A stretch of 63,180 bases of DNA, the filler included, from a bacterium (GTDB taxonomy: Bacteria; JADJOY01): assembly GCA_046331705.1 (NCBI GenBank). It is 3 parts of 3 records of this genome, joined end to end, with 100 filler letters (N's around TTAATTAATTAA, not from the genome) between each part and the next. Parts side by side here need not be neighbours in the genome. Positions count along the whole stretch, not along the records: positions 29,708 to 58,975 come from JAXLQJ010000075.1; 2 more parts are not named here. One strand, written 5' to 3'. The position numbers and the translations under genes were made by a program. Every line of letters starts with the position of its first letter. The first letter of the stretch is position 1. The notes under the pieces were generated by a model, which worked only from the letters and a program-made list of their open reading frames with translations, did no database searches and was not told where the DNA came from. Below, piece after piece: positions 3,990-59,075 of the stretch.

Positions 3990-4214
3990 ATGCCTGTCAC
4001 GCCGACACGGCTACGAGCCGATCTCTACCGGATCCTCGACCGCATCCTGGAAACCGGGGATCCGATCGAAATCGAGCACAAGGGCAAACGCCTCGAGAGC
4101 GTGCCCGTCGCTCCGGCCTCGAAGCTCGCGAACCTGGTCCCACGACCCGCAGCGATCCGCGGCGATCCCGACGAGCTCGTGCACCCCGACTGGTCGCACG
4201 AGTGGAAGCCGTGA
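3990..4214 (+). CDS. Phd/YefM-family antitoxin
   Basis: TPTRLRADLYRILDRILETGDPIEIEHKG; its stop overlaps the toxin start (GTGA). Confidence 0.85.
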   Translation: MPVTPTRLRADLYRILDRILETGDPIEIEHKGKRLESVPVAPASKLANLVPRPAAIRGDPDELVHPDWSHEWKP

Positions 4215-4491
4215 TCCACCTCGACACCCACGTCGTGGCATGGCTGTGGGCCGGTGATCTGAAACGTCTGAAGCCGGTAACTGCGACGCTCGACCGCGAG
4301 GACTTGGTGGTCTCGCCCATGGCGGTGCTCGAGCTGCAATACCTGCACGAGATCGGGCGATTGGCCGATCCAGCGCACTCGATCATGACCGATCTGGTCG
4401 CTCGGCTCGGTCTCAGGACATCCGACGCTCGGTTCTCGCGCATCGTCAGAGCGTCGCTCGCGCTCGATTGGACGCACGACCCGTTCGATCA
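4211..4491 (+). pseudogene. vapC: VapC/PIN toxin truncated at the 3' end
   Basis: IHLDTHVVAW...SPMAVLELQYL...WTHDPFD; homology then stops and the frame runs antisense into the next gene. Confidence 0.8.
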
Positions 4492-5178
4492 GCGCAGCTC
4501 GCGGCGGGTGGCGGAGGGAACCACGCCCACCCACCGAAAGAGCTCCTCGGGGGTGAGCGGGTCGCGCCCGGCCAGGAAGTCGTCGAGCAGCGGAAGCGAA
4601 TCCACGCCCCAGAAGAGCTCGCCGCCGACGACCATCGAGGGCACGCCGAAGGCGCCTGCGCCGAGCGCTTCCTCGGTCGCGGCGCGCAGCCGCGCCTTCG
4701 CCTCCTCGGTGCTCGCTTGCGCCACGAGCGCGTCGCCGTCGAAGCCGACGCTCGCGGCGATGCTCGCCACCTTCGCCGGTGAATCGATCCCGCCGCCGCC
4801 CGCCCAGGTGGCCGCGAAGAACGCGTCGATCAGCCGCCGCTTTGCCAGCGCATCGGTCGGCAGCGCCGACACGCGCAGCGCGAGCAAAGGATTGAACGGA
4901 TGAGTCGGCGGCGGCGTGAGCGGCGGTAGCCCGAAACGATGCGCCTTGCGGTACGCGTCCTTGAAGACGTAGAGCCGCTTCGCAGGGATCTCCGCCGGGC
5001 CCTTCTGCCCGTGCTCGCCGAGCAAGGCCGCGAACAGCACCGGGTGTGGCGCCACCGCGCGCCCGTGCCGCTCGGCAAGCGCGTGGATCTGCGTCCACGC
5101 GATGTACGCGTAGGGCGAGAGGTAGTCGAAGAAGAATCGGATCGGGTCGCGGTCGTCGCTGGCGGCGGTGCTGCTCAT
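4489..5178 (-). CDS. 2-hydroxychromene-2-carboxylate isomerase / GST-kappa (DsbA family)
   Basis: FFFDYLSPYAY, GAFGVPS and LFWGVD motifs. Confidence 0.9.
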   Translation of the reverse strand: MSSTAASDDRDPIRFFFDYLSPYAYIAWTQIHALAERHGRAVAPHPVLFAALLGEHGQKGPAEIPAKRLYVFKDAYRKAHRFGLPPLTPPPTHPFNPLLALRVSALPTDALAKRRLIDAFFAATWAGGGGIDSPAKVASIAASVGFDGDALVAQASTEEAKARLRAATEEALGAGAFGVPSMVVGGELFWGVDSLPLLDDFLAGRDPLTPEELFRWVGVVPSATRRELR

Positions 5179-5273
5179 GCGGGCGTCTCCTCGGAATGCG
5201 CGCGATGCGCCCGGCGGGATACACCGAGTCGACGCTCGTTGCCGACGATCGGCTTGCCGCGCCCGCAACGCGA

Positions 5274-5303
5274 CGAAGCCCGAGGGCTTCCCCTCGGGCT
5301 TCG
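5274..5303 (-). terminator. 13-bp-stem hairpin after the MCP gene
   Basis: CGAAGCCCGAGGG-cttc-CCCTCGGGCTTCG; arms nearly identical to the 3826 hairpin. Confidence 0.55.
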
Positions 5304-5361
5304 CTGGAACGATCGGCTCGCCGCGCGAGTCGATCCGCTCGTCGCACCGAACGCGGGTCGA

Positions 5362-7119
5362 TCAGGCGCTCCCCCAGGTGGTGGAATGCGGCGTGACCTG
5401 GACATGACCGCCGTGCGCCAGGTCGTGGACGCCGTTTCCACGGCCGTTACCCGCGTGCGCACCGTTGCCGCGCCGCACGGGAGCGGGCGCGTTCACCGCG
5501 CCGTTGACCTTGAAGCGGCTCACGATCGCCTGCAGCTCCGCCGACATCCGCGCCAGCTCGCTCGCGGCCTCTTGGCTGTGCTGCGCGCCGCTCGACGTGC
5601 TCTGCGCGGCGGTCGCCACACCGGTGATGTTCTGCGCGATGTCGCCCGAGCCCTTCGCCGCCTCGCCGACGTTGCGACCGATCTCGGAGGTGGTGGCTGC
5701 TTGCTCCTCGACGGCGCTGGCGATCGTCCCGTTGATGTCCGTGATCCGCTTGACCACGCCGCTGATCTGCCCGATCGCGGCGACGGCTCCCTGCGTGCCG
5801 GACTGGATCAGCTCGATCTTGTGCGCCACGTCCTCGGTGGCCTTGGCGGTGCCCTTGGCGAGCTCCTTCACCTCGTTGGCAACCACGGCGAAACCCTTGC
5901 CGGCATCGCCGGCGCGCGCCGCCTCGATCGTGGCGTTGAGCGACAGCAAGTTGGTCTGCTCGGCGATCGAGGTGATGACCTTCAGGATCTTGCCGATCTC
6001 CGCCGACGACTCGTCGAGCTTGAGGATCGTGCCGTTGGCCTCGTCGGCCACCTGCATCGCCTCCTCGGCGACCTTCGCGGCCTGGGACGCTTCGCGAGCG
6101 ATCTCGCGGATCGACGCTCCCATCTCCTCGGTCGCGCTCGCGACCGTGGTCACGTTGTGGGACACCTGATTCGCCGCCGCCGACACCGTGCCGGCTTGGG
6201 CGCTGGTTTCCTCGGCGTTGGCCCCCATCTGCGTGGCTACCGCGGAGAGCTCCTCGGAAGCGGAGGCCAGCGTCTGCACGTTGTGCGTGATCGCGACGAT
6301 GCTTTCCTCCACGGCGCCGAGCGCGTGGTTGAGCGCCGTGGCCAAGCGACCCACCTCGTCCATGCCGGTGATCGGCACGCGGCGTGTGAGGTCACCGTGA
6401 CCAAACGCCTCGACCACCTCGACGGCGTGACCGAGCGGTTTCGTGACCGCGCGCGACGAGAGAAAGCCCAGGATCATCGCCAAGACCGCCGCGCCCGCGA
6501 GCAACACCGAGACTTCGATGATCGCTTGCCGTGCCTCGGCGACATCGTCGTTCACGCGCTGTTCTGCCGCGCGCTCCATGGCCTCGCGAAGTTTTCCGAC
6601 CGCGTCCAACACCGCATCCCCTGCGCGCGCGAGCTCGGTCCGCACGTATTCCAAGGCGCGGGATGAACCTTCGCTGCTCGTGTCCTTGCTGTACTCGGTC
6701 GCGCGATCACGTACGGGCACGTACGCACCCCGCGCTTCGACGAACGTCTTCCAAGCGGCCTTCGACGCATCGTCGGAAAGCGCGGCCTCGACGGTCTTCC
6801 GGAACTCGGCGTTGCGCTCGAGATTCGTCTGAATCCGCTGAAGGATGGCGCGCTTCGCGCCTTCCTCGTTGCTGATGGCCAGGTCACGCAAGAGCGTCTG
6901 CGTGACTGAATAGGTCATCGCAAGGTCGCCAGCCGCCTCGCTGGGCTTGAGGCTCGTGGCGAGCAGGTCGAACGTCGTGTCTTGGAGCTGGTGAATCTGC
7001 CGAATCGCCACTGCAGCCACGCCGCACGCGAGTAGCACGACGATCGAGAATCCCCCCAGCAGCTTCTTCTGAATCCCCAGGTTCGCAATCCAACTCGTGA
7101 GCTTCGCCTCTTCTTTCAT
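5362..7119 (-). CDS. methyl-accepting chemotaxis protein (four-helix sensor, HAMP, signalling domain)
   Basis: Two TM segments, HAMP (DEVGRLA) and [37 protein letters not shown]. Confidence 0.96.
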
Positions 7120-11258: not shown

Positions 11259-11719
11259 TCAGCGCGCCGTCCGCGCGCCGAGCAACGCAGGAGACGCACT
11301 TCGCCGGTCTCGATCACGATCCACCCGTGCGCATCCGCCAACGAGCCGGCGCAGCCGGTCACGTCGTCGCGCACGCGTGTCGTAGGAAGCGCTGGCGGGG
11401 CGCGGTCGAGGGTGCCCACGGTGGTAGCGATCGGGCACGCACCGAGGGACTCGCCGTTTCCACCCAGCACGACGAGAAGCCGACGCCCGGGATCGGGCCG
11501 GAGCAGATCCGCGATCGGGTGAAGATCGTTTCGGCAACCCGCTTCGCGACGCTCGACGCATTCGACCGTGTCGGCAGCGAAGTGGTCGGCCCTCACGGAG
11601 GTGGCACGCGCAGGTCGGGCGCCGCTGCGCTCGTCGGCAGAGCGTGGCTCGGCGCCGATGTCGCCGCCGGCTCGGGCAGCAGCGGCGAGCCGGGTGTCTC
11701 ACCTCCCTCGCTTTGCATG
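11255..11719. repeat. direct repeat copy 1 (~450 bp)
   Basis: Aligns by eye to 13667-14119 with ~16 substitutions and 2 indels. Confidence 0.95.
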
Positions 11720-13666: not shown

Positions 13667-14119
13667 CTGATCAGCGCGCCGAGCAACGCAGGAGACGCAC
13701 TTCGCCGGTCTCGATCACGATCCACCCGTGCGCATCCGCCAACGAGCCGACGCAGCTGGTCACGTCGTCGCGCACGCGTGTCGTAGGACGCGCTGGCGCG
13801 GCGAGGTCGAGGTGCCCACGGTGGTAGCGGTCGGGCACGCACCGAGGGACTCGCGGTTTCCACCCAGCACGACGAGAAGCCGACGCCCGGGATCGGGCCG
13901 GAGCAGATCCGCGATCGGATGAAGATCGCTTCGGCAACCCGCTTCGCGACGCTCGACGCATTCGACCGCGTCGGCAGCGAAGTGGTCGGCCCTCACGGAG
14001 GTGCCACGCGCAAGTCGGGCGCCGCTGCGCTCGTCGCCAGAGCGTGGCTCGGCGCCGAGTTCGCCGCCGGCTCGGGCAGCTGCGGCGAGCCGGGTGTCTC
14101 ACCTCCCTCGCTTTGCATG
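13667..14119. repeat. direct repeat copy 2 (~450 bp)
   Basis: Same orientation as copy 1, offset about 2400 bp. Confidence 0.95.
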
Positions 14120-29607: not shown

Positions 29608-29707
29608 NNNNNNNNNNNNNNNNNNNNNNNNNNNNNNNNNNNNNNNNNNNNTTAATTAATTAANNNNNNNNNNNNNNNNNNNNNNNNNNNNNNNNNNNNN
29701 NNNNNNN
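29608..29707. other. artificial contig linker
   Basis: N44-TTAATTAATTAA-N44, giving stops in all six frames. Confidence 0.97.
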
Positions 29708-38328: not shown

Positions 38329-38704
38329 TCCGACGAGTGGTGCGCGTCCGAGCGTCCGGCGTCCGGGTTCACCCGGGTGGTCGCCCCAGGGGCCATCGTG
38401 CCTTCCAGGCCGCCGTCCACGTGGACCGAATCGGGCCGAGGGCGCGAGTTCTCTGCCTGGGTGTCCTCCAATGCCTCCCTCGCTGAAGCGCAGCTTGCCG
38501 CGGATACGCGGACGTCGCGCTCACCGCGATGAGGCGCTGGTGGCTGCATGACCGCATCCGGGTCTCGTGGAAACGTCCCGCGCTCGCAGCGCGGGCGATC
38601 GCTACGATGTCGCGCGAGTCACTGATCTCACGCATTGCAGCGGTGTGAGCGCCGAGAAGGTTTCGTGGCCGGCGCGCCGATCGGGAACCACCAGAGCCGA
38701 CGGC

Positions 38705-43998: not shown

Positions 43999-44691
43999 AT
44001 GGAACCACGAGCTGAGGCCGGATCGGGCCGGACCTACGGCGGCCTGTGCTCGTCGGAACGCAAGGATCGTCGCCGCGAGGCGTTCATCGCGGCGGGCCTC
44101 CAGGTCTTCGGATCGTCGGGCTTCCGCTCGGCGACGGTTCGTGGTCTGTGCCAGGAGGCGGGGCTCGCCACCCGCTACTTCTACGAATCGTTCGTCGACA
44201 TGGAGGCGCTCCTCGCGGCGGTCTTCGAGACCTGCGTGGCGGACTTCCGTCGCCGCGTCGCGGCGACCTTCGAGGCGCCCGAGATCACCACGGACCCCGA
44301 CGCGATGATTCAGGCCGGCCTCGAGTGCTTCTTCGGCTGGGCGGAGGATGCTCGCGTCGCCCGGGTGTGCTGGCGAGAAGTCGTCGGTGTGAGCCGCGCG
44401 CTCGACACGCTCTCGAGGAAGAGCCTGCAGAGCTTCGCGCCGACGCTCCTCGAGCTGACGCGCGCGGTGTACCCGGACTGGAAGGTCGACGACGCCGAGG
44501 CGCAGGTGGTCGCCGTCGCGGCCACCGGTGCCCTCTCGCAGGCGGCGCTCCGCTGGCATCAGGACAAGCGCCGCCTGCCGCGCGCCACGATGGTTGCCGC
44601 GACGGCGCGAATCCTGCGCGGGATTCGGCTCACCATCGAGGCGGACCTCGCGGCGTCGCGCGACGCGAAGCGATCGACCACGCGCCGCTGA
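43999..44691 (+). CDS. TetR/AcrR-family transcriptional regulator
   Basis: RTYGG...RRE and TVRGLCQEAGLATRYFYESF HTH. Confidence 0.92.
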   Translation: MEPRAEAGSGRTYGGLCSSERKDRRREAFIAAGLQVFGSSGFRSATVRGLCQEAGLATRYFYESFVDMEALLAAVFETCVADFRRRVAATFEAPEITTDPDAMIQAGLECFFGWAEDARVARVCWREVVGVSRALDTLSRKSLQSFAPTLLELTRAVYPDWKVDDAEAQVVAVAATGALSQAALRWHQDKRRLPRATMVAATARILRGIRLTIEADLAASRDAKRSTTRR

Positions 44692-49174: not shown

Positions 49175-49738
49175 ATGGTCCTTGAACCGGCCGAATTTGC
49201 GCGGGTGCTCCCGAGGGCAGAGGAAGAGGTCGCGCGGATCGACGCCGATGTTCCCGAGACGGTCCGGCTGAAGGCCGCGGTGCTCGATGCCGAGGAAAGC
49301 CGCCTCGCCAACTTCCTGGACTTCGTGGGCGAGGGGCGGGGGAGCAACGCGCTGGCTGCCGGGCTGATCGAGACCGAGAGCGGCGGGTCGAGGTACTGCG
49401 GGCCGAGGTGGATCCGCTCCGGTCGGCGCGCGATCGGCTGTTCACCGCGCCTCCCGCCGAGCGGAGTGCCGTTCGACTCAGGGGCCTGCAGGCACCGCTC
49501 GAGCGTCAGACCGAAGAGTCAGCCAAGGCGCTCCGACGACGGCTCGGTCCGGTCCGGCTGGATCCGGTGGTTCCCGATCGTGGGCCGGCCGTGTCACCGA
49601 GCGTTGACGGCCATCGACGCGCTGGCGCTGCTCGAGGCTCCGGATCCCAGCGATCGGAATCCGGGTGGATCTGGATCAGGCGGTACCGGCGGCACCCGCC
49701 ACGCCGGTACGAATTCTTTGCGTTGGTGTCGCCAATGA
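49175..49738 (+). pseudogene. large serine recombinase, C-terminal remnant (two frameshifts)
   Basis: RLANFLDFVGEGRGS..., ...LERQTEESAKALRRRLGPVRLDP..., ...IDALALLE...GTNSLRW; recognised from memory of this family's tails, not searched. Confidence 0.7.
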
Positions 49739-49810
49739 CTCCTCGTTTGAACCGGATTTTGCCGTGGATACACGACCTTTCACGGCTTCGCGATGAGGTT
49801 CCGTGGCCGT
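49724..49810 (+). repeat. att-like repeat 1 with micro-ORF
   Basis: TGGTGTCGCCAATGACTCCTCGTTTGAACCGGATTTTGCCGTGGATACACGA. Confidence 0.85.
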
Positions 49811-49861
49811 GTGATCGCCGGGCAGTGCGCGCCCGGCGGGACCGGCGCTCTCCCCGGCGTC

Positions 49862-50182
49862 TTACTGCACTTGGCCGAGTCGCTCGATCCAGTAGAGCGG
49901 GCGCCGCTTGAGATGGACCACGGCGACGACGAGGATCGACTCATCCCGTTCGGCGTAGATCACGCCGTACGGAAAGTCCGCGCAGCGCGCACGCCGAATG
50001 GCCAGTTCGGTCGTGGTGTGGGTGATAACTGGGAACGCGAGGGGACGCTCCGGGATCCGGCTGAGGACGTGCTGGAGGTCGTCGATGAATCGCGCGGCCG
50101 CGGCCGGAGACCGCTCCGCGTACCAGTCGACGATCTCACCGATCTCGGCCTCGGCCTCAGCGAAGAGTTCGACGGGCTTCAA
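49862..50182 (-). CDS. RelE/ParE-family toxin
   Basis: AEAEIGEIVDWY...FPYGVIY...VVAVVHLKRRPLYW. Confidence 0.9.
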   Translation of the reverse strand: MKPVELFAEAEAEIGEIVDWYAERSPAAAARFIDDLQHVLSRIPERPLAFPVITHTTTELAIRRARCADFPYGVIYAERDESILVVAVVHLKRRPLYWIERLGQVQ

Positions 50183-50415
50183 CGGCCGAGGCGCTGCAGC
50201 AGCCGGTCACGTGCCTGCGCCCAGGAGACCGTCGCAGCCTCTCCGCGCTCGACCGCCTCGACCCGGCGCCGTAGCTCGGCAGCCAGTTCCTCATCGCTGA
50301 GGTGGCCATGTGGATCCGGCGCCTCGACGCTGTCGAGCAGTCGCAGCGCGAGCCTCGTGCGCTCCTGGAGGTCGAGGGCGAGGGCGTCGTTCGTGATCTG
50401 CCGCGCGTCGGCCAT
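50179..50415 (-). CDS. putative addiction-module antitoxin
   Basis: ALALDLQERTRLALRLLDS...ELRRRVEAVERGEA; 4-bp overlap with the toxin. Confidence 0.88.
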   Translation of the reverse strand: MADARQITNDALALDLQERTRLALRLLDSVEAPDPHGHLSDEELAAELRRRVEAVERGEAATVSWAQARDRLLQRLGR

Positions 50416-50460
50416 ATCAGGATGGTACGCGATCGGCGCTTGGCGAGCCAACGTCGATCG

Positions 50461-50549
50461 TGGTGTCCCCCATGATCTAGATTTTGGACACCCTAGCGTA
50501 ACTGGAGGAGATGGATGGAGTACGAACCGCGATCGTCGCGGCTGGGTAG
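50461..50549 (+). repeat. att-like repeat 2 (degenerate)
   Basis: TGGTGTCCCCCATGA core; decayed frame VSPMI*ILDTLA*LEEMDGVRTAIVAAG*. Confidence 0.55.
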
Positions 50550-50575
50550 CGGCTTCGCGTGGTAGGCTCGATCGC

Positions 50576-50785
50576 ATGGAATTCAGGGTCGAAATCGAGC
50601 GAGAAGAGGACGGGCGCTGGATCGCCGAGGTTGGCGACCTTCCGGGCGTGCTGGCGTACGGCGATACACGCGATCGAGCGCTCGCTGCAGCGGAAGCCCT
50701 CGCGCTGCGCGTGATCGCTGATCGACTCGAACACGGCGAGACCGCGCCCGAGCCGGTCGTCGTTTCGTTCGTCGCTGCCGCTTGA
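50576..50785 (+). CDS. hicB: HicB-family antitoxin
   Basis: IEREEDGRWIAEVGDLPGVLAYGDT. Confidence 0.92.
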   Translation: MEFRVEIEREEDGRWIAEVGDLPGVLAYGDTRDRALAAAEALALRVIADRLEHGETAPEPVVVSFVAAA

Positions 50786-50789
50786 ACGA

Positions 50790-51005
50790 ATGGGCGCCTG
50801 GCCCACGACGAAGGCACGCCGCGTCCTCGCAGCCCTGCTCCGAATCGGTTGGTCCGTGAAGCGGGAGTCGGGCGGCTCGCATCGCGTCTTGGCGCGACCT
50901 GGCTGGCCGGACGTCGTGTGGGCATTCCACGACGCGACCGAGATCGGTCCGAAGATGCTCGCCCGGATCGCGAAGAGCGCGGGGCTCACGCCCGATGATC
51001 TGTGA
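50790..51005 (+). CDS. hicA: HicA-family toxin
   Basis: LLRIGWSVKRESGGSHRVL...EIGPKMLARIAKSAGL. Confidence 0.92.
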   Translation: MGAWPTTKARRVLAALLRIGWSVKRESGGSHRVLARPGWPDVVWAFHDATEIGPKMLARIAKSAGLTPDDL

Positions 51006-51039
51006 GCCCGGTGCGCATTTCCGCCAGATCTGGCGGAAT

Positions 51040-52635
<1,596 letters not shown>

Positions 52636-52820
52636 GGCAGCAGGCCTCGATGGTGATGCCGGCGTGGACCGGCAGGAGCCGGTCCCTCAGGGGTCCATGG
52701 TTCCAGGGTAGCAAGGGGAACCACGTCGGAACCGCGTCCCCGCCGCACTTGTGCGGGGCGGTCCCTAGCGGTGAGAATTCAGGGCCGTGTTTCGGTGGAA
52801 TCGCCGATGAGGTGACGACG

Positions 52821-55706
52821 ATGAAGATGACTTGGCGTGCGTGGCCGATCGTGCTCGTGGTCCTTCCGGTCGCTGCGTTTGCGGTCGAGCTGCCGTGGCC
52901 GACGGTCGAGTACAAGGCCGAGTTCCAGTCCCACGTCGAGATTCCGGTGGTCGAGGGGCAGGCGGCCGGCGACACCAAGGGTTCGATCCACGCGACGCCT
53001 TCGGTCCGGCGCGCCGACGGTCTCGTGCCGAGCGCCGGTGTCTTCGTGCTTTTCGACGATCGGACCGGGACCACGACGGTCGTCGATCCAGCGACGAAGA
53101 GCTACACCCGCTCGACGCGGCCTCAGCTGAAGCACGCGCTCTACCTCTCGGGTGGCATGGAGGAGCCGGGGGACGCGGTATGGGTCGGCCCGGAGACGGT
53201 GGGCGGCGTCGAGACCCGCAAGTATCGGATCTTGAAGAGCTCGATGGGGATCGACGTCGAGACGCTGGTGTGGCTCACGGCTGACCACATTCCGGTGCGC
53301 ACCGAGCGCCGCATGATGTCGAAGCTCTTGGGCACCTTCCAGCTGACGAAGGTCGAGCGTGGACCAGTCGACCCGGCGCTCCTGCAGATCCCCGCGGACT
53401 ACACGCGGAAAGGCGCGCCTCTCGACGATCCGTCGCTCCACGACGCACCCGTGGCCAAGCTCATCCAGATGCTGGGGAGTGAAAGCGAGGCCGAGCGGAG
53501 TCGTGCGCTCGGCACGCTGGAAGGTCGCGGCCGGAGCGTCGTGCCGGAGCTGCTGCAGGCGGCGTCGCACGATCCGTCGGCACTCGTGCGGCAGAACGCG
53601 CTTTCGCTGGTCGACGTGCAGGGCGCCGACGTGTCGATGGTCGATCCGCTGATCGCGATCGTCGAGAAGGACAAGGAGAACAAGGTCGTCGATGCGGCGG
53701 TCAAGATCCTGGCCGAGCTCGGGCCCGAAGCGAAGAAGGCGGCCCCCGCGCTCGAAGCGCTGCTCCAGCCCTACGGGGGCGAGCAGCTCTTCATGGCGCA
53801 ACCGAAGAACCTCGATCCGCACGTCGCGGGGATTCTCGCTGCGCTCCGGCTCGTCGCGCCCGAGAAGGGAGCGCGCGTCCAGAAGCTGGTGACGATGCGT
53901 GCCGCGACCATGGGCGGTGCGCCGGCGCCGATGGTCGTGGGCGGCCTCACCGACCCGGATCCCGAGGTGCAGAAGGCGGCCCTCGTGGGCCTCGGCAGTG
54001 GCGGCTACTGCGGATCGATCCGGAACTCGACCGACCTCGCCGACAAAGCGTGGCCGGCGGTCCTCGAGGGGCTCGACTCCGACGACGCACGCGTTCGCGC
54101 CGCGTCGGCCGTCCTCATCGACTGCTTCGGTACGCGCGGGCTGGCGACGCGGCCACGGCTGCGAGAGCTGCTCCACGACTCCGACCCCGAGGTGAAAGTG
54201 AACGCCGAGCTCACGCTCGAGAACATGGATCGGACGGCCGAGGGCGCCGCGGCCCTGGCGGCGGAACCGACACCCGCGCCGAGCGACCATGACAAGGAGA
54301 TCCTGGCCCAGATCGAATCCCTCGCGACCGCGCCGGCGAACGAGCGCTCGGCGATCTCGCAGCGCATCGACTTCGAGAACATGGACCAGGCCGAGAAGAG
54401 ACTCTTCTGGCCCGCGATCGCGAAGCTCCTCGACAGTCCGGATCAGTCGGTGCGCCACCACGCGCTCGAGATTCTCCAGAGCACTTTGCCCGACAGGGTG
54501 CCACCCCCGGCACCCGAGCTACCGCTTCAGATGCTGCGCCGGGAGCTTCACGACTCTTATGGGTATAGCCAGGTGAAGGCTTGCGAAATCCTCCGGCGCT
54601 TTCCGGACTCCGCCGACTCGTTGATTCCCGAGCTGGTCGCGGCGCTCCGCGATCCTTTCCGCGAGCTGCGTCTCGCCGCGGCGCGGACGCTCGAGCGCAT
54701 GCCGAAAGGCCTTCCGCTCGCGATCCCGGTTCTCGTCGAGGGTCTCGCTCCCGACTCCGGGAGGATGGATACCGCCTCGGAATCGCTGATCGCCTACAAG
54801 GCCAAGGCCGGCTCCGCGGTTCCGGCGGTGATCCGGCGCCTCGACGACCCGGATGAGGGCGCGCGTGAACGAGCGGTCAGGGTACTCGGTGGCATCGGCT
54901 GGCCGGCCGGGAGCGCCACGCCCGCACTCGTGGCTCGAATGAAGGATCCGTCGCTCAACGTGAGGCGCAAGGCTGTGATCGCGCTGGGCGACATCGGTCC
55001 AGCGGCGGCCGCCGCGGTGCCTGCACTCGGAAAGGAGATCACGGACCCGCACTCGAAGGTACGCCCCGAGGCGATCTCGGCACTCGGCAAGATCGGCCCC
55101 GAGGTTCCCGGCGTGCTCGATATCTTGAAACGAACGCTCGCGAGCAGCGAGCCCGGGACGCGCCGAGCGGCGGCCGACGCGCTCTTCACGATTGGTCGTG
55201 CGGCACTACCTGCGAAGGCGGCGCTCGAGAAGGCGACTTCCGATTCCGACGAGTGGGTCCGTTCCGCCTCGGCGCACGCTTTGAAGGAGATCGCGCCGCC
55301 GCCGCCCAAGCCGCTCGATCCGCGGATGGCGGCCGCGTACGCCGCGGCGGGTGCCCAGCGGATGGTGAACGTCGACTACAAGGCGCTGCAACGCGGTCTC
55401 GAATCGCCCAAGCCAGCCACGCGAGCCGAGTCCGTCCGCCAGATCGGCCGGATCGCGCCGCAACCGATGGAAATTCAGTACATGCTCAAGGACGACATCT
55501 TCCAGGACGAGGATCCGGCGGTTCGCAAGGCCGCGATCGAGGCGTTCAAGTTGCCGCCCGGAGGCTCGCTGCGCGAGGAGGTCGTCGCGATCTTCCGCCG
55601 CTTCGCCGCCGAGGACCCGAGCTCCGAAGTGCGCGAAGCGGCATCGAAGGCCCTCGAACGCGCCCACGCCGGGCCGAGCGGTGGTGAGGCGACGCTCCTG
55701 AAGTGA
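52821..55706 (+). CDS. secreted HEAT-repeat protein with N-terminal DUF4412-like domain
   Basis: GAGGTG RBS, signal peptide, GPETVGGVETRKY...DPALLQIPADY, many HEAT repeats. Confidence 0.85.
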   Translation: MKMTWRAWPIVLVVLPVAAFAVELPWPTVEYKAEFQSHVEIPVVEGQAAGDTKGSIHATPSVRRADGLVPSAGVFVLFDDRTGTTTVVDPATKSYTRSTRPQLKHALYLSGGMEEPGDAVWVGPETVGGVETRKYRILKSSMGIDVETLVWLTADHIPVRTERRMMSKLLGTFQLTKVERGPVDPALLQIPADYTRKGAPLDDPSLHDAPVAKLIQMLGSESEAERSRALGTLEGRGRSVVPELLQAASHDPSALVRQNALSLVDVQGADVSMVDPLIAIVEKDKENKVVDAAVKILAELGPEAKKAAPALEALLQPYGGEQLFMAQPKNLDPHVAGILAALRLVAPEKGARVQKLVTMRAATMGGAPAPMVVGGLTDPDPEVQKAALVGLGSGGYCGSIRNSTDLADKAWPAVLEGLDSDDARVRAASAVLIDCFGTRGLATRPRLRELLHDSDPEVKVNAELTLENMDRTAEGAAALAAEPTPAPSDHDKEILAQIESLATAPANERSAISQRIDFENMDQAEKRLFWPAIAKLLDSPDQSVRHHALEILQSTLPDRVPPPAPELPLQMLRRELHDSYGYSQVKACEILRRFPDSADSLIPELVAALRDPFRELRLAAARTLERMPKGLPLAIPVLVEGLAPDSGRMDTASESLIAYKAKAGSAVPAVIRRLDDPDEGARERAVRVLGGIGWPAGSATPALVARMKDPSLNVRRKAVIALGDIGPAAAAAVPALGKEITDPHSKVRPEAISALGKIGPEVPGVLDILKRTLASSEPGTRRAAADALFTIGRAALPAKAALEKATSDSDEWVRSASAHALKEIAPPPPKPLDPRMAAAYAAAGAQRMVNVDYKALQRGLESPKPATRAESVRQIGRIAPQPMEIQYMLKDDIFQDEDPAVRKAAIEAFKLPPGGSLREEVVAIFRRFAAEDPSSEVREAASKALERAHAGPSGGEATLLK

Positions 55707-55730
55707 CGGGCGCAAAGCGGAGATGAATGG

Positions 55731-55964
55731 GGCGGATACTCCACGAGTCGCCATGGGAATCGGTATCCGTACCACCGGTGCGCGAACGCCCGGTGTGGCG
55801 CGGTCGACGTCCGCCGCGATGCCCTCGAAGCGCCCTTCGTGGAGCTGCTTCAGCGGGTCCAACCACGACCCGAATTCGTGCGGCTCTTCCGTGAGGTGGT
55901 GCTCGACGTGTGGCACGAACGGCATCGGCAGGTGGCGTCGAGTCGAGCTCGGGCAGCTCCATGA
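55731..55964 (+). pseudogene. large serine recombinase, zinc-ribbon fragment
   Basis: Manual translation GGYSTSRHGNRYPYHRCANARCGAVDVRRDALEAPFVELLQRVQPRPEFVRLFREVVLDVW. Confidence 0.72.
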
Positions 55965-56115
55965 CCTCGGTTGAGGTCAGGCTGCATCGCCAACTCGGTG
56001 CGAGCAGAGGCTGATCCTGCCGCCGCGGCGTCCGACGTCGGTTCGGGCGCGCGCGACCGGTACACTGCTTCGATGGCCATAGACCTCACGACCTCCTGCT
56101 CCGGGACAGGCGCCA

Positions 56116-57021
56116 GTGAATGACGGCTGGACCTACCGGGAGCGCCTGGGGGGCCGCGCCGTGGGGCGGCGCCTCGACGACTACCTCGCCGGCACCTGGG
56201 CACACACGACCCTGGCCGAGTGGCGGGAGCACATCGTCAACGGGCGAGTCCTCCTCGATGGCGAGCGGGTCGGCATCGACGCCGTGCTGGTGCGCGGGCA
56301 GGCGGTCCACTGGCTGCGCCCTCCTTGGGAGGAGCCCGCCGCTCCGCTGCTGCTCACCGTGCTCTACGATGACGGCGACGTGATCGTGGTTGCGAAGCCC
56401 GCGGGCCTGCCGACCTTGCCGGGTGGCGGGTTTCTCCAGCACACGCTGCTGCACCAGCTCCGCCTGCTCGACACCACCGCCTCTCCCGCTCACCGCCTGG
56501 GGCGCTGGACCTCGGGGGCGGTGCTGTGCTCCCGCGGGTCGGCTCACGGCGCGAACCTCGCGGGTCAGTTCGCAGCCCGGTCGATCCACAAGCGGTACCG
56601 CGCCCTCGCCTCCGGTCTGCCGGAGCACGACCGCTTCGATGTGCGCACCCCCATCGGGCCGGTGCCCTACCTGCCGCTCGGCACCGTGCACGCCGCGAAC
56701 CCCGACGGCCGCCGCTCCGAGTCGACGGTGACGGTCATCGAGCGGCGCGGCGACTCGTTCCTGTGCGACGTCGCCATCGCCACGGGACGGCCTCACCAGA
56801 TCCGAATCCACCTCGCCGCCGCCGGGCACCCGCTCGTGGGCGATCCGCTGTATGTCGTCGGCGGTCACCCCACCCCCGGCGGGAGCGCGGTCCCCGGAGA
56901 CCCGGGGTATCACCTGCACTCCGCGAGCATCGGGTTTCAACACCCGCGCACGGGTCGGCGGGTCGTGGTCGCGGCGCCGCCGCCGGAGATCCTGGAGGTC
57001 GCGGCCAGCTCCTCGTGTTGA
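56116..57021 (+). CDS. RluA-family pseudouridine synthase (catalytic HRLD read as HRLG)
   Basis: S4-like N-terminus; KPAGLP, HRLGRWTSG, TGRPHQIRIH and GDPLY motifs. Confidence 0.88.
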   Translation: MNDGWTYRERLGGRAVGRRLDDYLAGTWAHTTLAEWREHIVNGRVLLDGERVGIDAVLVRGQAVHWLRPPWEEPAAPLLLTVLYDDGDVIVVAKPAGLPTLPGGGFLQHTLLHQLRLLDTTASPAHRLGRWTSGAVLCSRGSAHGANLAGQFAARSIHKRYRALASGLPEHDRFDVRTPIGPVPYLPLGTVHAANPDGRRSESTVTVIERRGDSFLCDVAIATGRPHQIRIHLAAAGHPLVGDPLYVVGGHPTPGGSAVPGDPGYHLHSASIGFQHPRTGRRVVVAAPPPEILEVAASSSC

Positions 57022-57168
57022 GGTCGACGTCTTACCGGGCGCCGGAGTCGTCGTCCACGAAGTCGCGCGACAGGTCATCCTCCAACGCACTCGGTCGTCA
57101 TCCCACCGGGTGTGCTGGCGTGGCTCGATATCGAGCGTCTCGTGGATCTGCTTGAGCGGGCGTGAAGA

Positions 57169-57254
57169 TGGTGTCCCTGATGACTCCTACCTTGAACCGG
57201 ATCCTGCCGCTTCTACAGCGGATCGTTGATCTGCGCCGCGCCCTCGCGGCGTGA
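57169..57254 (+). repeat. att-like repeat 4 with micro-ORF MTPTLNRILPLLQRIVDLRRALAA*
   Basis: TGGTGTCCCTGATGACTCCTACCTTGAACCGGATCCTGCCG. Confidence 0.88.
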
Positions 57255-57293
57255 GATGACAGGCGAGCTACGTGTTCGCGGTGCGCGTCCTGC

Positions 57294-57623
57294 TCAGCGC
57301 CCGTGTCCAAGCTCAGTGAGGCGGTCGAGCCAGTAGCCCGGTCGGCGCGCGGAGTGGAACACGGCGAGGATCACGACACGGTCATCTTGGACGCAGTAGG
57401 CGATCTGGACGGGGAAGCGGTTCAGCATCTTGCGGCGGATCCCAAGCTCGGGAGGTGCGCCGTCGACGAGTGCTCCCGCTGCGGGGAACTCGAGCATGAA
57501 CGCGATTGCCTCGTCGACCTCGAGAAGGAACCGACCGCCGAGCCCCGGCTCCTGCAATTCGTAGTAGACCGCCGCGTCCTCGTATTCGGCGAGAGCCGCC
57601 GCGAGGAACTGGTGGAGTCTCAA
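57294..57623 (-). CDS. RelE/ParE-family toxin
   Basis: ALAEYEDAAVYYE...RFPVQIAY...ILAVFHSARRPGYW. Confidence 0.9.
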   Translation of the reverse strand: MRLHQFLAAALAEYEDAAVYYELQEPGLGGRFLLEVDEAIAFMLEFPAAGALVDGAPPELGIRRKMLNRFPVQIAYCVQDDRVVILAVFHSARRPGYWLDRLTELGHGR

Positions 57624-57868
57624 GATCGCAGGGTGCGAAGGCGTGCCAGGACGCGCTGCCGTGCGAGGTCGCCGTCGATCAGGTCGGCGTGCCCCTGCGT
57701 GAGCTCTCGCGCCCGGCGGACCAGCTCCCCAACCCGCTCGGCTTCGGCTGCGGCTGGATCGCCTTCCGGCGAGTCCAAGCTCTCGATCAGCCGCCGCGCC
57801 GCCTCGGCCCGCTCGCGGGGGGGGCGTTCGAGCAATCTGGCGAGAGGTTCCTCGTTCGTGATGATCAT
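57620..57868 (-). CDS. putative addiction-module antitoxin
   Basis: PPRERAEAARRLIESLD...ELVRRAREL; 4-bp overlap with the toxin. Confidence 0.85.
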   Translation of the reverse strand: MIITNEEPLARLLERPPRERAEAARRLIESLDSPEGDPAAAEAERVGELVRRARELTQGHADLIDGDLARQRVLARLRTLRS

Positions 57869-57928
57869 GCCCTCATGGTACCCGCGGTGGGGCGGTCAAG
57901 GCGAGAGTGCGATTGCACGCCGTGGAGC

Positions 57929-57945
57929 GGTGTCCCTGCAGGGAC
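57929..57945 (+). repeat. att-like core 5 (short, palindromic)
   Basis: GGTGTCCCTGCAGGGAC shares GGTGTCCCTG with repeats 3 and 4. Confidence 0.4.
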
Positions 57946-58020
57946 CACTCACCCAGCGCCCGGTCAAAAATCAACGGAAGAAAGTCCTGCCAACATCCGG
58001 TAATCACGGTCCTTCGAGAC

Positions 58021-58043
58021 TGGTGTCCCCAGGAGGATTTGAA
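58021..58043 (-). mobile_element. tRNA 3'-end fragment (att-site relic)
   Basis: Minus strand TTCAAAT-CCTCC-TGGGGAC-A-CCA = T-loop, T-stem, acceptor strand, discriminator, CCA with canonical spacing; no 5' half present. Confidence 0.75.
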
Positions 58044-58975: not shown

Positions 58976-59075
58976 NNNNNNNNNNNNNNNNNNNNNNNNN
59001 NNNNNNNNNNNNNNNNNNNTTAATTAATTAANNNNNNNNNNNNNNNNNNNNNNNNNNNNNNNNNNNNNNNNNNNN
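58976..59075. other. artificial contig linker
   Basis: N44-TTAATTAATTAA-N44. Confidence 0.97.

Follow-up and report, generated by a model that had tools for sequence, protein, structure and literature searches.

Repeated micro-ORFs in a bacterial genome stretch as probable attP P' arms of tRNA-Glu-integrating serine recombinase elements, encoding an alternative integrase C-terminus

Distribution and sequence analysis was done of a family of short direct repeats with conserved micro open reading frames (micro-ORFs), which are found in a stretch of 63,180 nucleotides (nt) of the bacterial genome assembly GCA_046331705.1; this whole stretch is called here the window, and the micro-ORFs lie in the middle one of its three joined contigs. 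We consider it probable that these repeats are the P' arms of phage-type attachment sites (attP) of elements which integrate at tRNA-Glu(CUC) by means of a large serine recombinase (LSR), and that they encode an alternative C-terminus of this integrase. The LSR gene extends through the crossover core TGGTGTCCCC. When it is joined to the transfer RNA (tRNA) gene in the integrated form (attR) it ends in 12 codons of antisense tRNA, and when it is joined to a P' arm, either in the attP of the excised circle or at a tandem junction, it ends in a conserved tail of 26–29 residues. The structural reading is well supported and the functional reading is presented as a hypothesis, by which the tail would be a state-specific C-terminal extension of the integrase. 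The copies in the window are read as orphaned arms.

The reading is carried first by one integrase which is found with two different ends. The metagenome protein P0011, of 524 residues and with Resolvase, Recombinase and zinc-ribbon domains, is identical at 498 of 498 positions to the LSR of the locus G003:C28 up to ..ALVSP, and from there, at the core, the two C-termini diverge: P0011 ends RIEILNTAGPWLAELADLQTYMRSAA (26 residues), whereas the G003:C28 LSR ends GGFEPPSQD, followed by the stop, inside antisense tRNA-Glu. The tail of P0011 follows the last strands of the zinc-ribbon domain and is identical at 24 of 31 positions to the micro-ORF beside the LSR of locus L099. A profile of 14 micro-ORF peptides was searched against 1.84 billion proteins and gave 10 matches at an expect value (E) of <=1e-3. 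The tail is likewise found on one of these matches, P0007, a C-terminal fragment of an LSR (E 4e-20 to the LSR of L100) with the in-frame end ..SWNRILAWLREMAALRDSGILAA; P0008 also resembles an LSR C-terminus with the tail, an identity which could not be verified. In genome G004 the copies G4a and G4b are each preceded by a 3' remnant of an LSR gene which runs in frame into the family copy, and two further homologues of the P0011 LSR returned by the search (P0012 and P0013) have antisense-tRNA-like tails. The first-pass annotation of this DNA had proposed that the micro-ORFs are C-terminal tails detached from a recombinase, whose other state would end in an antisense-tRNA tail, and had made the proposal depend on some recombinase carrying the tail in frame; P0011, P0007 and the two G004 remnants do carry it so, and they lend support to the proposal. 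No copy in the window is in frame with an intact recombinase.

Read on the other strand, the core is the 3' end of tRNA-Glu(CUC), and the match of the repeats to the antisense tRNA-Glu 3' end is limited to the first 10–13 nt. At G003:C28 and G004:C169 the LSR gene reads into the tRNA-Glu gene on the opposite strand and ends ..ALVSPGGFEPPSQD or ..RMVSPEGFEPPSQD before the stop; the terminal VSPxGFEPPSQD of these tRNA-adjacent LSRs is thus encoded by antisense tRNA, and in them the core is divided into codons as GTG TCC CC, in the same frame as the micro-ORF. A tRNA, a transfer-messenger RNA (tmRNA) or a known RNA family was also tried as the origin of the whole repeat and was rejected, as no Rfam match at the gathering score was obtained in the window and no ARAGORN tRNA at the repeats. 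A related LSR, of 44% identity, is present at 3998–5509 of the IMG/VR provirus L147 and ends ..LTGIEPVTS, followed by the stop, inside antisense tRNA-Ala(GGC), the other end of the provirus being absent from the record; it is therefore the LSR clade, and not a single element, which has the trait of reading into a tRNA gene.

The geometry of the attachment sites agrees with the same reading. The element at G003:C28 is 8.55 kb long and has one short core at both of its ends, GGGGACACCA at 73629 (the tRNA-Glu 3' end) and at 82179, with 13 nt in common. The tRNA-Glu and the LSR gene are at one end, the micro-ORF arm lies inside the other end and reads inward, and a toxin-antitoxin module is placed outside the element beside the micro-ORF end. 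From this recurrence of the core with an inward micro-ORF arm it follows that attR (P-core-B') is on the tRNA side and attL (B-core-P') on the micro-ORF side. Counted from the first T of the core, the motif (T/C)TTGAAC starts at nt 23 in all 13 micro-ORF arms (shifted by +1 in the diverged copy c0) and at nt 18 in all four tRNA-type arms, which are two antisense tRNAs and two displaced tRNA fragments; the motif is thus 5 bp farther from the core in the micro-ORF arms. The available text of one study gives as a hallmark of serine integrases that the outer motif and the second DNA-binding domain are 4–5 bp nearer to the centre in attB than in attP (10.1101/2025.01.03.631226), and the micro-ORF arms have the displacement of an attP. 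This is also like the attP and attB half-sites of LI, SPbeta and phiC31, where the outer motif is nearer to the centre in attB (nt 18 against nt 23 here), but unlike them the target here is a tRNA gene and the integrase gene overlaps the site. An LSR gene adjoins the arm or is at the far end of the element in L099, where an intact LSR is directly upstream of the family copy, in G003:C28, and as remnants upstream of c1, G4a and G4b.

The repeat listing of the window gives four copies of the family, and a fifth, diverged copy (c0), absent from the first-pass list, is present at 38459–38551; every copy has the same orientation (plus strand) and no inverted partner was found. All the copies have a sharp left boundary at (T)GGTGTC, and the sequences to the left of it are unrelated between copies. 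Copy c1 (49724–49814) has the core TGGTGTCGCC and a type A P' arm, with the frame from GTG at 49726 and a 1-nt deletion which puts the aligned family stop, TGA at 49812–49814, out of frame. Copy c2 (51040–51131) has the core, a type A P' arm and an intact frame of 29 codons (51042–51131), or 26 codons when counted from ATG at 51051, which ends VLVAA; copy c3 (57169–57254) has the core, an arm of the second type (B) and an intact frame of 27 codons (57171–57254) which ends ALAA. The peptides earlier claimed for c1, c2 and c3 agree exactly with our translation. In c0 the core and P' arm are diverged, a 1-nt insertion separates the core from the ATG, and the ORF of 26 codons, which ends LVAA, is preserved from ATG at 38471 only. 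The nhmmer profile gave E of 1.8e-24 for c1, 6.7e-27 for c2, 2.4e-26 for c3 and 7.4e-9 for c0, and a 30-mer of c2 with <=3 mismatches gave 2 matches in the window against 0 in 100 shuffles. The repeat c4 (50461–50489, plus strand), which had been taken for a decayed fourth copy, has E of 0.28 only; it is a core with a half-site of about 29 nt and P' spacing (TTTGGAC at nt 23) at the left end of the HicBA unit, and the micro-ORF part was never present there.

The tail appears to be maintained as a protein. An alignment of 13 copies was used for the counts of frame and stop: reading from the GTG meets no stop before one in the same column in 10 of them, in c0 this holds only from the ATG, and c1 and G1a have frameshifts. 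The conserved family stop is either TGA or TAA, and the 11 copies with this stop all end in AA, for which all four alanine codons are used. The differences earlier described as synonymous between copies are real; c1 and c2 differ over 25 codons at 5, 4 and 11 sites in codon positions 1, 2 and 3. Among the six closer type-A copies the variable sites are 14/18/31 at the three positions (p 0.023), and 10/12/26 (p 0.009) when only codons 10–26, past the half-site, are counted. The ratio of nonsynonymous to synonymous substitution (dN/dS, Nei-Gojobori) is 0.25–0.67 in 15 pairs. These ratios point to moderate purifying selection on the tail.

Several observations weigh against the reading of the micro-ORFs as integrase tails. 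P0011 sits on a 118-kb contig, and because of this its junction probably joins tandem elements and not the ends of a circle; word-based protein searches for longer tail-bearing proteins found none, which is weak evidence. The P' arm of the intact G003:C28 element itself gives a tail of 37 codons without the AA end. In a second LSR type the core is read one base out of register (TGG TGT CCC) and the frame stops 2–7 codons later at a TGA inside ATGA or inside TTTGAAC, so that it ends RWCRQ or RWCPQGSRF; this type is intact in L099 and is present as a pseudogene at 49178–49738 of the window, and so the gene abutting c1 belongs to a different LSR type with another frame through the core. In L099 the micro-ORF overlaps the LSR end out of frame and yet it stays open. 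It is possible that such out-of-frame junctions bring together arms from different elements, that the peptide is also made alone, or that a frame change occurs. The frame is also intact in arms without an adjoining LSR (c2, c3, G1b, G1c and G1d), an observation equally compatible with an independent peptide and with recent orphaning. The start codon is variable, with an ATG in 10 of 13 copies and a GTG out of register in c0. Among ten more diverged copies, described below, the stop is near the family position in 3, later or missing in 2, while 3 are interrupted and 2 are without the 5' part. The codon-position bias, whose absence over a larger set had been named earlier as a sign against a protein tail, holds in the six closer type-A copies but is not significant with all 8 type-A copies (28:29:41, p 0.20). 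On the antisense strand, the frame with the same wobble positions is open in 11 of the 13 copies; as a coding frame it was rejected, since the repeat contains neither a start nor a stop for it.

Some of these points would be explained if the micro-ORF were an independent small protein, with translation initiated at its own GTG or ATG, perhaps by coupling to termination of the upstream gene, and with an action in trans, for example as a regulator of recombination. We find this quite unlikely. It would account for frames which are open at the family length while out of frame with the recombinase (the c1-adjacent LSR type and L099) and for their preservation in orphan copies, and it agrees with the overlap of the LSR stop with the ATG as ATGA in c1, G1b, G4b and G4c and with the GGTG placed 6 nt ahead of the ATG. 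Gene callers also predict proteins of 55–70 residues which end in the motif (P0001, P0004, P0005, P0006 and P0009), but these vary at the N-terminus and are singletons on short contigs. A conserved start codon with a ribosome site, as in a gene for a small protein, was not found: the start varies as described, the left flanks are unrelated between copies and so hold no conserved promoter or ribosome site, and a search of 49600–51300 found no promoter-like site. In-frame fusions of the tail with LSRs are moreover documented, as given above, and these agree with an integrase tail.

It is also very unlikely that the repeats act only as DNA, that is, as a binding site of the LSR with hitchhiking neighbour sequence in which the open frame is incidental. 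The P' half-site would explain the first ~29 nt of the repeat, c4 serves as a unit boundary without the ORF part, two of the three orthologous ParE-adjacent copies are frameshifted (c1 and G1a, not G4d), and the codon bias is not significant in the full type-A set. Conservation extends, however, for about 60 nt beyond the half-site with the excess of third-position changes given above, the stop and the AA end are kept while the codons used for them change, and the protein profile recovers LSR C-termini from unrelated metagenomes. A conserved RNA fold was also looked for in the copies and not found (consensus -0.03 kcal/mol, 4 pairs, 0 compensatory). That the repeats are integron attC sites or ends of miniature transposons is hardly credible, because, although direct repeats separate small toxin-antitoxin units here as in chromosomal integron arrays, the copies have no hairpin or dyad in common, are all in one orientation without an inverted partner, bound units with both gene orientations, and have as their core a tRNA-Glu 3' end which is abutted by the ends of LSR genes, though no search aimed at an integron integrase was made.

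For the tail as an alternative integrase C-terminus, we propose by analogy a function specific to the recombination state, either as a degron or as a directionality element. In genome engineering the large serine integrases are major tools, and a separate directionality factor is generally held responsible for their direction. Proteins are directed to ClpXP by C-terminal Ala-Ala tags. An end of the form (L/V/A/S/Q)AA is present in all 11 copies of the first set and in P0005, P0006, P0007, P0008 (with its LSR identity unverified) and P0011, while three diverged copies end MA, RA and AR. The host tmRNA tag in G001, G003 and G004 is ANDGSAYAIAA, and the (L/V/A)AA end of the tail resembles its end, IAA. 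This tag-like end may destabilise the non-integrated form of the integrase; alternatively the tail, which leaves the zinc-ribbon domain near the coiled coil, may alter the direction of recombination. In an AlphaFold2 model of P0011, made from 11 sequences, the tail is a low-confidence helix (residues 501–523) with a predicted local distance difference test (pLDDT) score of 30–55, and residues 463–506 are below pLDDT 50, so the model is uninformative on docking.

A wider and more tentative idea, which we hold to be unlikely but conceivable, is that the P'-encoded tail is a sensor of the recombination state, the attP form of the integrase being short-lived or biased to integration, and that the same cores move recombinase-less toxin-antitoxin units in trans. 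In such a scheme only the attP-form integrase would carry the helix of ~26 residues with a tmRNA-tag-like AA end, stability or competence for excision would belong to the integrated form, which has the antisense-tRNA tail, and direction would be controlled without a separate directionality factor. The units moved in trans would be toxin-antitoxin units of 0.6–0.85 kb, and the result would be a cassette array like that of an integron but operated by a serine recombinase.

If the C-terminus of an integrase is rewritten by the reaction of the integrase itself, the enzyme would have a built-in state switch, especially if one tail is a conserved peptide whose end is like a degradation tag. Examples of this design known so far are a tyrosine integrase (Mx8) and a phage repressor (BPs). 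According to the available part of the Islander paper, the integrase gene extends across attP in phage Mx8 (IntP/IntX) and in the SSV-type integrases (PMC4383910). As in Mx8 and SSV, the integrase frame spans the crossover here and integration replaces the C-terminus; the differences are that those enzymes are tyrosine recombinases, to which P0011 with its serine recombinase domains does not belong, that the non-integrated tail here is a conserved peptide family common to several integrase types, and that the integrated tail here is antisense tRNA. The available text on mycobacteriophage BPs describes an attP inside the repressor gene, the viral form of the repressor being 33 residues longer with an ssrA-like tag which integration removes, and it also describes a C-terminal proteolysis signal on the BPs integrase (PMC4557955). 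The integration-dependent immunity of BPs would be the nearest precedent for the degron idea, with two reservations: the split gene there is the repressor (with a tyrosine integrase) and here the serine integrase itself, and the likeness is drawn solely from the resemblance of (L/V/A)AA to the host tag. The LSR elements thus function like the Mx8 and BPs switches yet are members of neither class, because the enzyme is a serine recombinase. Our literature search, which did not cover supplementary files and is not proof of absence, did not find a serine integrase gene described as spanning its attachment site, or a conserved P'-encoded tail.

The same Islander paper, of 2014, says in its part available to us that targeting of tRNA genes was not known among serine integrases (PMC4383910), and serine integrases which do so are documented here. 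It also describes, for tyrosine integrases, the island signature of a tRNA gene with a displaced tRNA fragment, again as far as the available text goes (PMC4383910). Like tandem accretion of islands at tRNA genes, the window has a displaced 23-nt 3' fragment of tRNA-Glu and repeated cores between units, but unlike the islands of tyrosine integrases some of the units here are toxin-antitoxin modules of 0.6–0.85 kb without a recombinase. The exact attB, attP, attL and attR arms are now defined for testing. For annotation, the data account for conserved micro-ORFs and for short displaced tRNA fragments beside toxin-antitoxin modules.

The region 49178–58043 of the window is interpreted as a decayed array in which LSR elements and toxin-antitoxin units stand in tandem at a former tRNA-Glu site, in the order LSR pseudogene, c1, ParE/antitoxin, c4, HicBA, c2, debris and genes, c3, second ParE/antitoxin, the core at 57928 and the core at 58021. 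The LSR pseudogene (49178–49738, plus strand) retains about 190 C-terminal codons and is frameshifted; it matches residues 453–635 of the L099 LSR by blastx in two frames (E 1e-34), is of the same type as this intact protein of 639 residues, and its frame ends ..TNSLRWCRQ with the stop TGA at 49736–49738 inside c1. It is followed, on the minus strand at 49862–50415, by a ParE toxin (49862–50182) and its antitoxin (50179–50415), with Pfam matches PF05016 and PF09720. In three genomes this unit of ~0.75 kb is conserved over its whole length between cores, and its neighbours differ from genome to genome (window 49717–50475 corresponds to L078 2101–2864, and window 49725–50469 to L098 8672–9419), and the cores are therefore the rearrangement points of the region; in G004 a tRNA-like fragment with attB spacing follows the ParE unit. 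Such homology suggests, at the level of sequence, recombinase-less cassettes which are moved or bounded by serine-integrase sites.

After c4 the HicB antitoxin (50576–50785) and HicA toxin (50790–51005), both recognised by Pfam, occupy 50576–51005 on the plus strand. In the left flank of c2 a near-perfect palindrome (TTCCGCCAGATCTGGCGGAA in the window, 51005–51040) is observed which is common to G1c and G2_C113 (L079 near 2357–2395 and L110 near 1582–1620) and which may be a terminator or a binding site closing the preceding unit. Between c2 and c3 are found pseudogenes, a HEAT-repeat protein, a fragment of an LSR and a pseudouridine synthase. The first part of this interval, 51235–52636, is pseudogene debris within the array, with a truncated aldo/keto reductase gene (intact in G001 C470) beside frameshifted peptidase-like fragments. 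The LSR fragment (55731–55934, plus strand) is not of the c1-adjacent type but of the other LSR type and covers the zinc-ribbon region; it is related to the tRNA-Glu-adjacent LSRs of L104 and L100 (blastx E of 4e-21 and 1e-19).

Beyond c3, a second ParE toxin (57294–57623) and antitoxin (57620–57868), identified by Pfam on the minus strand at 57294–57868, have 90.7% identity over 697 nt to G003:C28 82206–82900, which is the module flanking attL there. The core-like sequence CGGTGTCCCT at 57928–57937 (plus strand) is preceded by the same sequence as the attL core of the G003:C28 element, and 93 nt of sequence are found between it and the core at 58021. This last site, a core with a B' arm (58021–58043, plus strand), matches 23 of 23 nt of the antisense tRNA-Glu(CUC) 3' end and has the motif at nt 18, the attB spacing; directly to its left is a remnant which, judged by eye, resembles the 3' end of an L104-type LSR gene. 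A degraded integration site is placed in the window because of this antisense fragment and the LSR remnants.

Relatives were tracked by scanning public collections with degenerate patterns. The scan of genome contigs gave two stretches, the true relative L001, whose genome has the handle G001, and one chance match within an unrelated gene. Of 44 stretches from metagenome contigs two are related, L023 (the same sequence as L001) and L027, a 1.2-kb contig identical to window 49436–50624, and the remaining 42 were called unrelated by their flanks; the scan of viral contigs gave a single stretch, which is unrelated. Nine genomes among 200 relatives of G001 matched with <=2 mismatches, of which G001 and G004 were accepted and the 7 others were discarded on the matched letters alone. 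Whole-genome searches found four family copies each in G001 and G004, and a sequence-only covariance model added 10 more, diverged copies across G001–G004. The genomes G001–G005, of 5.5–8.4 Mb, are the sole species genomes of their phylum in the collection. A tblastn search of P0011 against phage and plasmid collections matched only N-terminal domains at ~30% identity.

A subfamily with another core, TGGCGCGCC, was also observed at L132 1505–1669 (G004:C29), in P0001 and P0005, and at L101 2544–2660 and L096 2216–2362. Here the tail is the C-terminal half of an ORF of 55 residues, and the N-terminal half (..LIDxTIxFWSPRYG..) recurs directly upstream of an LSR gene in G002:C171.

As to the setting, the window has a G+C content of 69%, and its DNA is present in sequencing runs on activated sludge and wastewater from several studies; 14 DNA runs from sludge and wastewater studies contain, as contigs, at least half of the stretch. 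The contigs of run X4 agree with the c1 junction and with the junctions from c4 to c2, with a shorter side of ~20 nt at every listed joint, which makes this agreement unreliable. A single contig from an RNA library spans 50943–51112, from the HicA end into c2, and is not proof of transcription. The runs of N at 29608–29707 and 58976–59075 surround TTAATTAATTAA, the six-frame stop linkers which join the three contigs, and no feature can therefore be read across these points. Outside the array, direct repeats of ~440 nt at 11270–11710 and 13671–14110 have 96% identity with 2.4 kb between them and are unexplained, and a 93-nt tRNA-Gly(CCC) called by ARAGORN at 44329–44421 lies within an ORF of the TetR family and is probably a false positive.

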